Assembly: GCA_965262115.1 (NCBI GenBank)
Contig: OZ253496.1
Location: 1,344,001-1,408,000, forward strand
From: Nitrospinales bacterium
GTDB lineage: Bacteria; Nitrospinota; Nitrospinia; Nitrospinales; VA-1
Reading direction: 5' to 3'
Length of the DNA stretch: 64,000 nucleotides
How positions within the stretch are numbered: the first letter of the stretch is position 1; each line of letters starts with the position of its first letter. Both the position numbers and the translations under genes were made by a program. Below are positions 36,543-49,186 of this stretch, one piece after another. Below the pieces are notes generated by a model. That model was not told the DNA's origin. It was given only the letters and a program-made list of their open reading frames with translations, and did not search any database.

Positions 36543-36639
36543 TGTAAATTACCAGTGTGCCAGCGGAGCACCTCCGCTGGGAAATGGCATGTCTTGATCT
36601 CGTGCCCAATCGGTTTCTCGGCTCAATACTATTGCCTAT

Positions 36640-36927
36640 GAGACCTTTACATAACCCCGGATTACCCCTTCGGGGCATGAAGGTTAAGGAAGAGGACATC
36701 ACATACCCCTTCTACCCGTTCCGGGCATGAATTTAGCGGAGGGGATATCACAGGCTCACGAAGGTTAAGGAAAAATATCACGTCTTCGTCACGTTATTCC
36801 TCAGAATGACAAACCGGCTTTGCGCTGTCATTCTGAACGCAGTGAAGACGTGATATTCCACTTAAGCTCTCGTGCCCCGAAGGGGTAATCTCGCTTTTTT
36901 GTTTTTTTCGACTTACGCAAAGGTCTC
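36640..36927. mobile_element. MITE with 9-bp TSD carrying four ~40-bp inserted elements
   Basis: Ends GAGACCTTTACATAA / TTACGCAAAGGTCTC. ATTGCCTAT flanks both sides (36631-36639 and 36928-36936). Inserts at 36663-36782 and 36849-36887. Confidence 0.9.
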
Positions 36928-47155: not shown

Positions 47156-47271
47156 TACCCCTTCTACCCGTTCCCCTAAATTCATGCCCGGAACGGGTAG
47201 AAGGGGTATGTGATGTCCTCTTCCTTAACCTTCATGCCCCGAAGGGGTAATCCGGGGTTATGCAAATGTCA
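47156..47271. repeat. Partial MITE end with ~40-bp elements (largely reverse complement of 36640-36736)
   Basis: 47176-47265 is the near-identical reverse complement of about 36647-36736; 47156-47174 pairs with 47190-47208. Confidence 0.85.
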
Positions 47272-47642: not shown

Positions 47643-47766
47643 GGAGGCCTTTGCGTAACCTGAGATTCTCATTGATCCTCCCCTCTCATGAGGGGAGGCA
47701 ATGATCTTCCCCTGAATTGGTGGACACATCGAAAAGTGTGGATAATACACTTTTGGAGGTGTTTTT

Positions 47767-48101
47767 ATGGGAACCAAACGCAGGAGTTTCAGTAAAGAAT
47801 TCAAGTTAGAAGCGGTTCGATTGGTTATTGAAGTAGGCGATAGCATTGCCCGGGTGTCCCGGGATCTGGGAATCCGTTCTGCCCTTCTGGGTCGCTGGAA
47901 ACAGGAGTATGAGGAGGATCAGGGGAATGCGTTTCCCGGCAAAGGACAGCTTAAGCCGGGAGATGAGTTGCAGCAGTTGCGGCGAGAAAACGCTCGCCTT
48001 CGTATGGAGCGGGACATATTAAAAAAGGCGGCAGTTATCTTTGTGATGTCCTCTTCATTTGTCTTCATGCCCCGAAGGGGTACTCGAAGGGTTCCCAATG
48101 A
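47767..48101 (+). pseudogene. IS3 OrfA (HTH), 3' end disrupted by a 41-bp insertion
   Basis: RRSFSKEFKLEAVRL...LRRENARLRMERDILKKAA. Removing 48042-48082 restores VIFSKGSQ* overlapping the orfB ATG. Confidence 0.85.
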
Positions 48102-48961
48102 GATATCGGTTTATACGGGATCATCGAGAAGCATTTCCGGTAAGCCCGATGTGCCGGGTTCTGGAAGTGGGACGAAGTGGGTTCTATGCCTGGCTGAGCC
48201 GCCCCGAGAGCCTGAGGAGCCGTGAGAAGCAGCGATGGGTTGATGAGATCAAAACCGTTTATAAGAAGAGTCGCCAGACTTATGGCAGTCCCAGAATTCA
48301 TGAGGACTTGAAAGACAAGGGATATGCCATTGGCAGGCATCGTATTGCCTGTCTTATGCGCGAGCATGGAATCGTTGCCAAGCACAAAAGAAAGTTCAGG
48401 GTGACAACCGATTCCAAACATAATCACCCGGTGGCAAAAAACAAACTGCAACGGCGGTTTAATGTTGCTGAGCCCGGTCAATGCTGGGTTTCGGATATCA
48501 CCTATATCCCGACTCAAGAGGGCTGGTTATACCTTGCGGTGACGCTGGATTTATTCCACCGTAAAGTTATTGGTTGGGCCATGGATCGTTGGATAACCCG
48601 TTGGTTGGTAATGAGAGCTTTAAATATGGCAATGAAGAACGGCGGCATGAAACCGGGATTGATTCACCATTCTGACCGGGGGGTTCAATATGCCTGCAAC
48701 GATTTTCAAGCCTTGCTCAATGTTCATGGGATAGAGTGCAGTATGAGCCGGAAGGGCGATTGCTGGGATAACGCCGTGGCGGAGAGTTTTTTCCATACTC
48801 TCAAAGTGGAACTCATTCATAACCGGAACTACAAAACCCGTCAGCAAGCAAAGAAGGATATTTTTGAATATATCGAAGTGTTTTATAATCGGCAACGCCG
48901 TCACTAATATCTCGGCTATCTCAGCCCTGCCGAATTCGAGAAACAGGCCTATGCCTCTTAA
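48098..48961 (+). pseudogene. IS3 OrfB DDE transposase with a late nonsense codon
   Basis: [33 protein letters not shown]. Reads NRQRRH*YLGYLSPAEFE, with TAA at 48905-48907 where Ser is usual. Confidence 0.9.
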
Positions 48962-49186
48962 CTAACTGTCCACTAAAACAGGGGAAGATCACATATAACA
49001 CAGGGGGGGGAGATGACAGTCGAAAAGGCCAACAGGCAGTAAATCACCCCAACCCGTCGGACAAGACGTATTCCTATTGTTCAAGTTTAAGAAAGAGGGG
49101 GATTAAAAACTTTCCCTGTCTGTGGGATTGCTTTTCACTCTCCCCGGCGAGGGTGCCGATTTTTTATCTGGCCCTGCGCCGAGCAG

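Follow-up and report, generated by a model that had tools for sequence, protein, structure and literature searches.

A 41-bp mobile unit inserted without target duplication in an IS3 element of a Nitrospinales bacterium

Very small repeats and the systems closest to the unit

Small dispersed repeats (SDRs) measure 21–27 nt, are nested in their own copies, and share a secondary structure. To our knowledge, no enzyme and no mover have been recorded for them. SDRs of Nostoc and its relatives were reportedly described by Elhai et al. in 2008 (Genome Res 18:1484). SDRs and the repeat unit analyzed here, compared by description, are alike in being very small and precisely inserted: according to PMC4390886, the site of SDR5 lies between two HIP1 bases that are fixed. 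Precise insertion, nesting in own copies and compensatory changes within a conserved fold, which define very small mobile repeats of the SDR kind, were all found in the unit. The unit differs from SDRs in size (39–41 bp), in residing in another phylum, in lacking a fixed target, and possibly in having at the 3' end a GNA hairpin which is predicted to be completed by the 5' end. In its behavior the unit resembles these tiny cyanobacterial repeats, a poorly understood kind of element, and now comes with a testable structural clue.

The DNA analyzed is a stretch of 64,000 nt (hereafter, the window) from a Nitrospinales bacterium (GCA_965262115.1, contig OZ253496.1, positions 1,344,001–1,408,000 of the forward strand). 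Plain coordinates are window positions. The source genome, the assembly of which is 94% complete, is called G000, and coordinates tagged G000:C1 refer to the genome.

Non-autonomous derivatives of IS200/IS605 elements feature hairpins at both ends, and a fixed target of 4–5 bases located 5' of the insertion. The unit was not assigned to this class, as it has one hairpin only, and no consensus emerges over 68 target classes. In integrons, the full attC site exists only in the circle. The unit is reminiscent of integron cassettes because its 5' start would complete the stem formed at its 3' end, but it has no R and L box motifs and no gene cargo, and its 15-nt hairpin is far below the size of attC.

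REPs and REPINs associated with RAYTs share several traits with the unit: they are short repeats forming hairpins, reside mostly between genes, cannot move by themselves, and serve as targets for IS110 elements (PMC3116915, PMC3733652, PMC6006769). In contrast to them, the unit is a single asymmetric module rather than an inverted doublet. Assignment to REPs or REPINs was rejected, since the GTAG foot tag is absent (the foot is made by TTC plus a variable base), and no Y1 gene flanked by the repeat was found in G000 or in 22 relatives. The unit was not classified as a MITE either, because the terminal inverted repeats and target duplications by which MITEs are recognized (PMC3184786, available part) were not found together in it. 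Ssn proteins are GIY-YIG single-strand nucleases which recognize small CGTC-type hairpin repeats on one ssDNA strand, according to the accessible text of PMC11893778. Ssn-like genes flanked by repeats reside in G000 and in its relatives, and units are nested inside those repeats. However, SsnA cuts few bases upstream of the hairpin (same text of PMC11893778), whereas the ends of the unit correspond to the 3' stem arm and to a point 24–26 nt upstream. The unit was not considered an Ssn-associated repeat, as CGTC-type repeats make up the gene flanks at 50 loci, units being merely nested in some of them.

The 41-bp insertion and the IS3 element that hosts it

IS3 elements produce the OrfAB transposase via −1 frameshifting in the region where orfA and orfB overlap. 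The element in the window has the TG and CA ends and the terminal inverted repeats of the family. In the empty form, as in homologous elements, orfA (HTH) and orfB (DDE) overlap in −1 phase and a slippery site is present; the A6G run is presumably the −1 shift site. Features are listed in Table 1. A preliminary description had placed the unit in orfA just past the A6G run; the bases are exactly as quoted there, and the unit begins 14 nt 3' of the run. The length of 1249 bp given for the element deprived of the unit was recomputed with the same result, and the reported resemblance to a second unit in the window was confirmed, 4 positions out of 41 being different. The latter unit adjoins, at 47156–47208, a nested, near-palindromic stack of partial units, which is found again 10 kb away (36611–36747) as an inverted repeat of itself.

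Homologous IS3 elements were sought in 41 genomes, and five span the junction. In all five (G016, G030, G003, G039 and G026; 69–78% identity) flanks are joined directly, and exactly 41 bp are absent, with neither gaps nor duplications. Both the insertion and its exact ends are thus demonstrated. Similarity among units is not fortuitous: 96 ungapped matches with 11 mismatches or less were found in the genome, none with each of 5 shuffled queries. The empty homologs contradict the possibility, contemplated in the preliminary description, that the 41 bp are carried by all homologous IS3 elements, including those of unrelated hosts. The parallel expectation that intact copies lack exactly 41 bp held for the other genomes (5/5, no duplication), not for G000, where copies lacking the unit were found neither among 15 left junctions nor among 17 right junctions. 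Left junctions feature a plain unit in 7 cases, and a unit split by a 1.2-kb insert in 8; the last bases of the unit precede all the 17 right junctions. The exact 27-mer of the left junction gave no matches in JGI metagenomes, from which records close to G000 are possibly excluded.

Three odd unit variants were detected among the IS3 copies. All adjoin the 1.2-kb IS110 insert described below, and resemble recombinants. A single original insertion is therefore the simplest history: the unit entered the IS3 lineage of G000 once, and was later inherited, one event rather than many. The notion that the unit moves independently into non-repeat DNA is borne out in that the insertion is exact, duplication-free, and located in a coding sequence rather than in a hairpin repeat; it has to be restrained in that the IS3 is itself repeated, and one inherited event is at hand.

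The unit was supposed to break OrfAB synthesis, and does so by ordinary reading, as the −1 shift leads in its presence to a product of 111 aa ending at the orfA stop, and frame 0 to one of 152 aa. Yet a second lesion is found in orfB. A nonsense codon is present in 14 of the 17 G000 copies, that of the window included, at a position occupied by Ser in three homologs and in 3/17 G000 copies. Loss of the 18 C-terminal residues of OrfB presumably impairs the element. All 7 plain copies (no IS110) carry the stop, whereas each of the 3 copies with Ser harbors the 1.2-kb IS110. Intact OrfAB is encoded by no copy: the unit is in every one, the stop in 14/17, the IS110 in the remaining 3. A further full-length IS3 transposase that might act as helper was not found in G000, which holds only a 55-residue fragment.

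IS3 copies in G000 are at least 99.5% identical; their 8-nt flanks are of 14 different kinds on the left and of 15 on the right. As for the 3–4-bp target duplications of the family, three 3-bp pairs were recognized. They rebuild into empty sites which have look-alikes elsewhere in G000; halves, however, are mostly swapped, and flank different copies, and SNPs are distributed in mosaic fashion. IS3 copies have therefore recombined. Conversion among IS copies is a known phenomenon. Most likely, the G000 IS3 is a dead passenger, spread either by a helper that was lost or is unassembled, or by conversion. At G000:C1:1895231 and 1297286 flanks seem exchanged within the first 8–13 bases of the unit, as by recombination at the 5' end, though an assembly effect is possible.

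Table 1. Features of the locus (window coordinates)
Feature	Position	Strand	Remarks
IS3-family element, defective	47702..48991	+	1290 bp including the unit; TG...CA ends; ~26-bp terminal inverted repeats
Left half of 3-bp target duplication	47699..47701	+	partner flanks the copy at G000:1657488; 23 genomic sites resemble the rebuilt empty site
orfA	47767..48225	+	HTH_Tnp_1 (Pfam); frame 0 reads through the unit, 152 aa
A6G slippery site (presumed)	48021..48027	+	GGAG 11 nt upstream; both present in the empty homolog L002
41-bp mobile unit	48042..48082	+	without target duplication in the IS3; 5/5 homologs empty
First two unit bases	48042..48043	+	predicted partners 48067 and 48066, extending the stem across the circle junction
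Hairpin-foot bases (−17, −16)	48066..48067	+	predicted partners of the unit 5' end
3'-terminal hairpin	48068..48082	+	6-bp stem including one G.T pair, GNA triloop
CT core	48076..48077	-	IS110 site in other copies of IS3 and unit; empty in the window copy
orfB, DDE domain	48098..48907	+	rve/HTH_21 (Pfam); early stop at 48905-48907, 18 residues lost
Second 41-bp unit	47209..47249	+	37/41 identical to the window unit; within a nested unit stack

The unit family, its predicted end pairing, and the passenger IS110

Units have fixed ends, generate no duplications, share no target sequence, occur nested and in head-to-tail tandems, and feature a covarying GNA hairpin and covariation between base 1 and the hairpin foot. 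In G000, a pattern search in which base 1 and base −16 were both left free identified 219 intact units, which measure 39 bp (102 units), 40 bp (50) or 41 bp (67), and correspond to 149 distinct sequences. By joining flanks in silico, an empty site was found in the genome for 68 of the 285 hairpin matches, and 67 of these 68 give a length of 39–41 bp and no duplication. The 68 target classes have no fixed sequence, and exhibit a loose bias only (position −5 is G in 66%, position −2 is A in 1%), to which the IS3 site does not conform. Units reside in loops and stems of CGTC-type hairpins, in DUF559-type hairpins, in other repeats, and in copies of themselves, and are also arranged head to tail. 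Hairpin repeats host the majority; flanks are unique on both sides in only 12/219 units, and therefore many copies have travelled within larger repeats, and a site such as that in the IS3 is exceptional. As many as 37 units belong to one site class. Copy number overstates mobility, because many copies have spread passively inside larger repeats. At G000:C1:814897-815055, one 41-mer is followed by four identical 39-mers, arranged head to tail inside another unit.

The hairpin motif was found in 38 of the 102 genomes of the order, its reversed control in none. The tandem-junction motif marks 60 loci among 185,579 species genomes, all recorded as Nitrospinota, and is carried also by two viral contigs. 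In G013, dense CGTC-type mosaics with nested units fill intergenic gaps of 0.5–1.5 kb in a BIME-like fashion (L227-L229; G013:C1:387000-409000 and 1022500-1023800). No Rfam family matches the DNA at the unit, and no paper on this 39–41-bp repeat of Nitrospinota was found in a literature search that covered few subscription journals.

The closing pair of the hairpin covaries among the 149 distinct units (C-G in 87, G-C in 38, T-A in 8). In DNA, triloops of the GNA type have very high stability (PMC3201870, PMC13037366), and the G.T pair of the stem is possible solely on the strand as written. Base 1 and base −16 are Watson-Crick partners in 133/149 distinct units (T-A 88, C-G 33, A-T 12), versus a mean of 73 and a maximum of 92 in 10,000 shuffles, and their mutual information is second only to that of the hairpin closing pair. 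In units from other genomes which are not seen in G000, the two bases are complementary in 90/106, the shuffle maximum being 72. The pair is broken in 16/149 units of G000 and in 16/106 units of the relatives, mostly to C.A. In tandems, the foot base tracks the first base of its own unit, not that of the next one (33 C-G units precede a unit starting with T). The second end pair, made by the neighboring G and C, is near-invariant, and hence gives no covariation signal. Units are related, and the three pair types may reflect few independent changes. The 2-bp end pairing does not appear in the minimum-energy structure predicted for the unit, whose folding energy is no better than that of shuffled sequences (z −1.2 and −0.5). 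The covariation of base 1 and base −16, revealed in this analysis, predicts a self-splinted circle junction. Neither this predicted pairing of unit ends nor the targeting of units by an IS110 element had been noticed in the preliminary description.

The 1.2-kb insert found in units encodes a DEDD transposase (DEDD_Tnp_IS110 and Transposase_20 domains), and is associated with a CT core, as expected of IS110 elements. Of 26 ends that could be anchored, 25 fall at the same point of the hairpin and have the CT core; one site is missing a base. Segments of the left non-coding end match the target on either side of the insertion. Both guide segments change accordingly in a variant (88% identity) inserted in units with a GCA rather than a GAA loop. 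In G063 and G070, homologs less closely related carry other guide segments and have another hairpin as target; the guides of some relatives match their sites loosely. Natural guide variants track three target types. The insert is a putative bridge-RNA element of the IS621 pattern, which is known biology: it shares with IS621/IS110 elements the DEDD transposase, the CT core, guides in the non-coding left end, and a repeat as target (PMC11208160, PMC3184786, in the parts accessible), and differs in targeting the hairpin of this unit. New in this analysis is that the element lands in the unit hairpin, with guide loops changing along with the target. In three IS3 copies (G000:C1:411461, 603892, 1658437) a C-to-A change in the unit hairpin would mismatch the IS110 guide, and all three are IS110-free, a small sample. 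Six IS110 copies, most of which in IS3, share a 10-bp frameshifting deletion (264 versus 316 aa; G000:C1:1462465, 1634234, 1933892, 1895287, 2014548, 1419189).

Candidate movers and a model for unit movement

A gene for the mobilizing enzyme flanked by units was found neither in G000 nor in the loci analyzed of its relatives, the viral contigs, and the junction loci. In G000, 13 ORFs have units on both sides, none of which is a plausible mover. No such gene was found between unit pairs among the matches listed for low-copy genomes, in the two viral contigs and the 60 junction loci, and in the dense clusters of G013 (3 of 28 stretches). Several enzymes were considered as movers, and most of them discarded. 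Y1/RAYT genes number 0 in G000 (94% complete), and are present in 7 of 22 relatives, at 8 loci none of which holds a unit. Reverse transcriptase (RT) is represented in G000 by broken pieces only. Three cas1 genes all lie within CRISPR-cas loci, and none is unit-flanked; of these loci (G000:C1:2120000-2128200, 2643300-2647200, 765600-769600; types assigned by eye) two appear decayed, and one has an array. IS110 DNA was found in 9/70 genomes of the family, the unit motif in 36/70, so that IS110 takes advantage of the unit rather than being its mover. A search for IS91 Y2 enzymes gave no match, and neither did its control. Three full-length tyrosine recombinase genes are present in G000.

G000 also encodes small Ssn-like GIY-YIG proteins, and has 9 DUF559 matches, most of these genes being flanked by their own hairpins. 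Units nest within the hairpins of Ssn-like and DUF559 genes, and do not flank the genes as a motif of their own. DUF559 was not found in the unit-rich genomes G007, G063, G065 and G004, nor a close Ssn homolog in G062, G064 and G065. Both remain leads, because they are hairpin-linked nucleases located where units land, single-strand activity having been shown for Ssn only. Ssn-like GIY-YIG subfamilies occur across Nitrospinaceae, each flanked by its own CGTC-type repeat (G000:C1:2573200-2573535; L128-L145, L187-L196). Small DUF559 genes (G000:C1:735444-735764, 377385-377705, 1582297-1582617, 660936-661250, 1589978-1590298, and others) each lie between two copies, in inverted orientation, of a C-rich/G-rich hairpin, which is also dispersed in the genome. 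The arrangement is like that of Ssn genes and REPtrons, with a different nuclease fold; a limited literature search found no paper on hairpin-flanked DUF559 genes.

We consider it probable, though by no means secure, that the 41 bp are a copy of a family of 39–41-bp mobile units of Nitrospinota, which insert without duplication, likely as ssDNA rings with a predicted self-paired-stem junction; that the enzyme is likeliest a hairpin-binding nuclease or transferase plus a ligase; and that one unit hit the IS3, which then spread and was followed by IS110. In the folded strand, the first two bases would stack on the terminal hairpin, and both ends and both flanks would meet at one nick. Cutting and joining at the nick would set a ring free, and leave an empty site without scar; by the reverse reaction, the ring would be placed into exposed ssDNA, mostly at other hairpin repeats. 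The enzyme would likeliest be a hairpin-binding single-strand nuclease or transferase acting with a ligase. One insertion would have struck the IS3 14 nt past the frameshift site, making full-length OrfAB impossible by normal reading. The defective IS3 would have reached ~14–15 sites, either by a transposase from an intact copy outside the assembly, or by recombination or conversion among copies, and the RNA-guided IS110 would have landed afterwards in the unit hairpin in more than half of the IS3 copies. A single-nick ring would fit the absence of duplications, the absence of a target sequence, nesting, and tandems. In vitro, a strand of 39 nt is circularized by T4 ligase when 2–3 bp flank the intramolecular nick (PMC11352879), a result that speaks for feasibility only. 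More speculatively, units could represent a class of minimal 40-nt transposons in the form of self-splinted ssDNA rings, devoid of an HUH, DDE or RT enzyme of their own, which borrow a hairpin nuclease (Ssn-like, DUF559-like, or other) and the host ligase, and insert scarlessly into almost any exposed strand, and the same chemistry could explain orphan tiny repeats of cyanobacteria and other phyla; to this extension we assign a minor chance.

Other explanations must be weighed. No dedicated enzyme would be needed if host replication and repair (template switching, slippage, conversion) acted at fragile hairpins, the fixed ends being points at which synthesis stalls. The failure to find a cognate gene fits such a scheme, as do the scarcity of units with unique flanks on both sides (12/219), the identical 39-mers in tandem, and the chimeric units beside IS110 copies; but inserts of 39–41 bp, exact to the base, in 68 unrelated target classes, including a codon run of the IS3 without homology to the ends, and a conserved 5' motif and base 1/−16 covariation, unexpected from slippage, make it rather unlikely. 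The end pairing could equally steer a template jump, were units copied by an RT from a short RNA, and cDNA, sometimes concatemeric, captured at nicks, and head-to-tail arrays would be so accounted for. That an RNA intermediate is involved seems nonetheless improbable: the two RT fragments of G000 are broken by stops and lie in a tandem-repeat stretch of non-bacterial look, the unit-rich genomes G019, G007 and G018 have no RVT_1 match, the GNA triloop is a DNA-type motif, and 149 distinct sequences do not come from one template.

Two further possibilities concern the IS3. The unit-bearing element might still be self-mobile, precise unit excision or a +1 shift at CCC-CGA-AGG restoring OrfAB, with the unit working as a reversible switch. 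Past the insert, orfB lies in the +1 frame relative to orfA, and every copy has the unit, yet ~14–15 sites were reached, genuine 3-bp duplications are observed, and the assembly contains no helper transposase. The switch is nevertheless very doubtful, as the 7 IS110-free copies all have the orfB stop, the 3 copies with Ser all have the 1.2-kb IS110, the CCC run is altered in three copies, and no empty IS3 copy was seen in G000. Collapsed or mis-joined repeats might instead contribute to the uniform presence of the unit and to the shuffled IS3 flanks, given that duplication pairs with both halves at the same copy are rare, and that the first ~55 kb of the contig resemble foreign DNA, being made by satellite-like repeats and broken RT pieces. 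The region (G000:C1:1-55000), where the satellite-like repeats are in tandem and the RT pieces are two, appears non-bacterial and fused to the contig, which calls for caution about the assembly. An artefact of this kind has little probability, because copies are distinguished by consistent SNPs and by three unit variants, and because other genomes, too, have units of this type and IS110 elements lodged in units; the insertion relative to the homologs stands regardless. The mobile ssDNA ring, a probable one, is the reading retained here.

It is not yet understood how repeats shorter than 50 bp can move when no transposase is known for them; in PMC3733652, CGTC repeats are reported to have no dedicated transposase. 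That IS110 elements target repeats was already known, and there is nothing out of the ordinary in the host IS3, a dead element. The locus is made by three stacked parasites (IS3, unit, IS110), and supplies natural variants of bridge-RNA guides. The IS3 site provides a clean filled-versus-empty pair in coding DNA, and the covariation between the unit end and the hairpin foot makes the mechanism testable, as it predicts a ring formed at a single nick, and a single base pair open to disruption and repair by mutation. Were the model true, units would reveal an uncharacterized activity that inserts ssDNA scarlessly.
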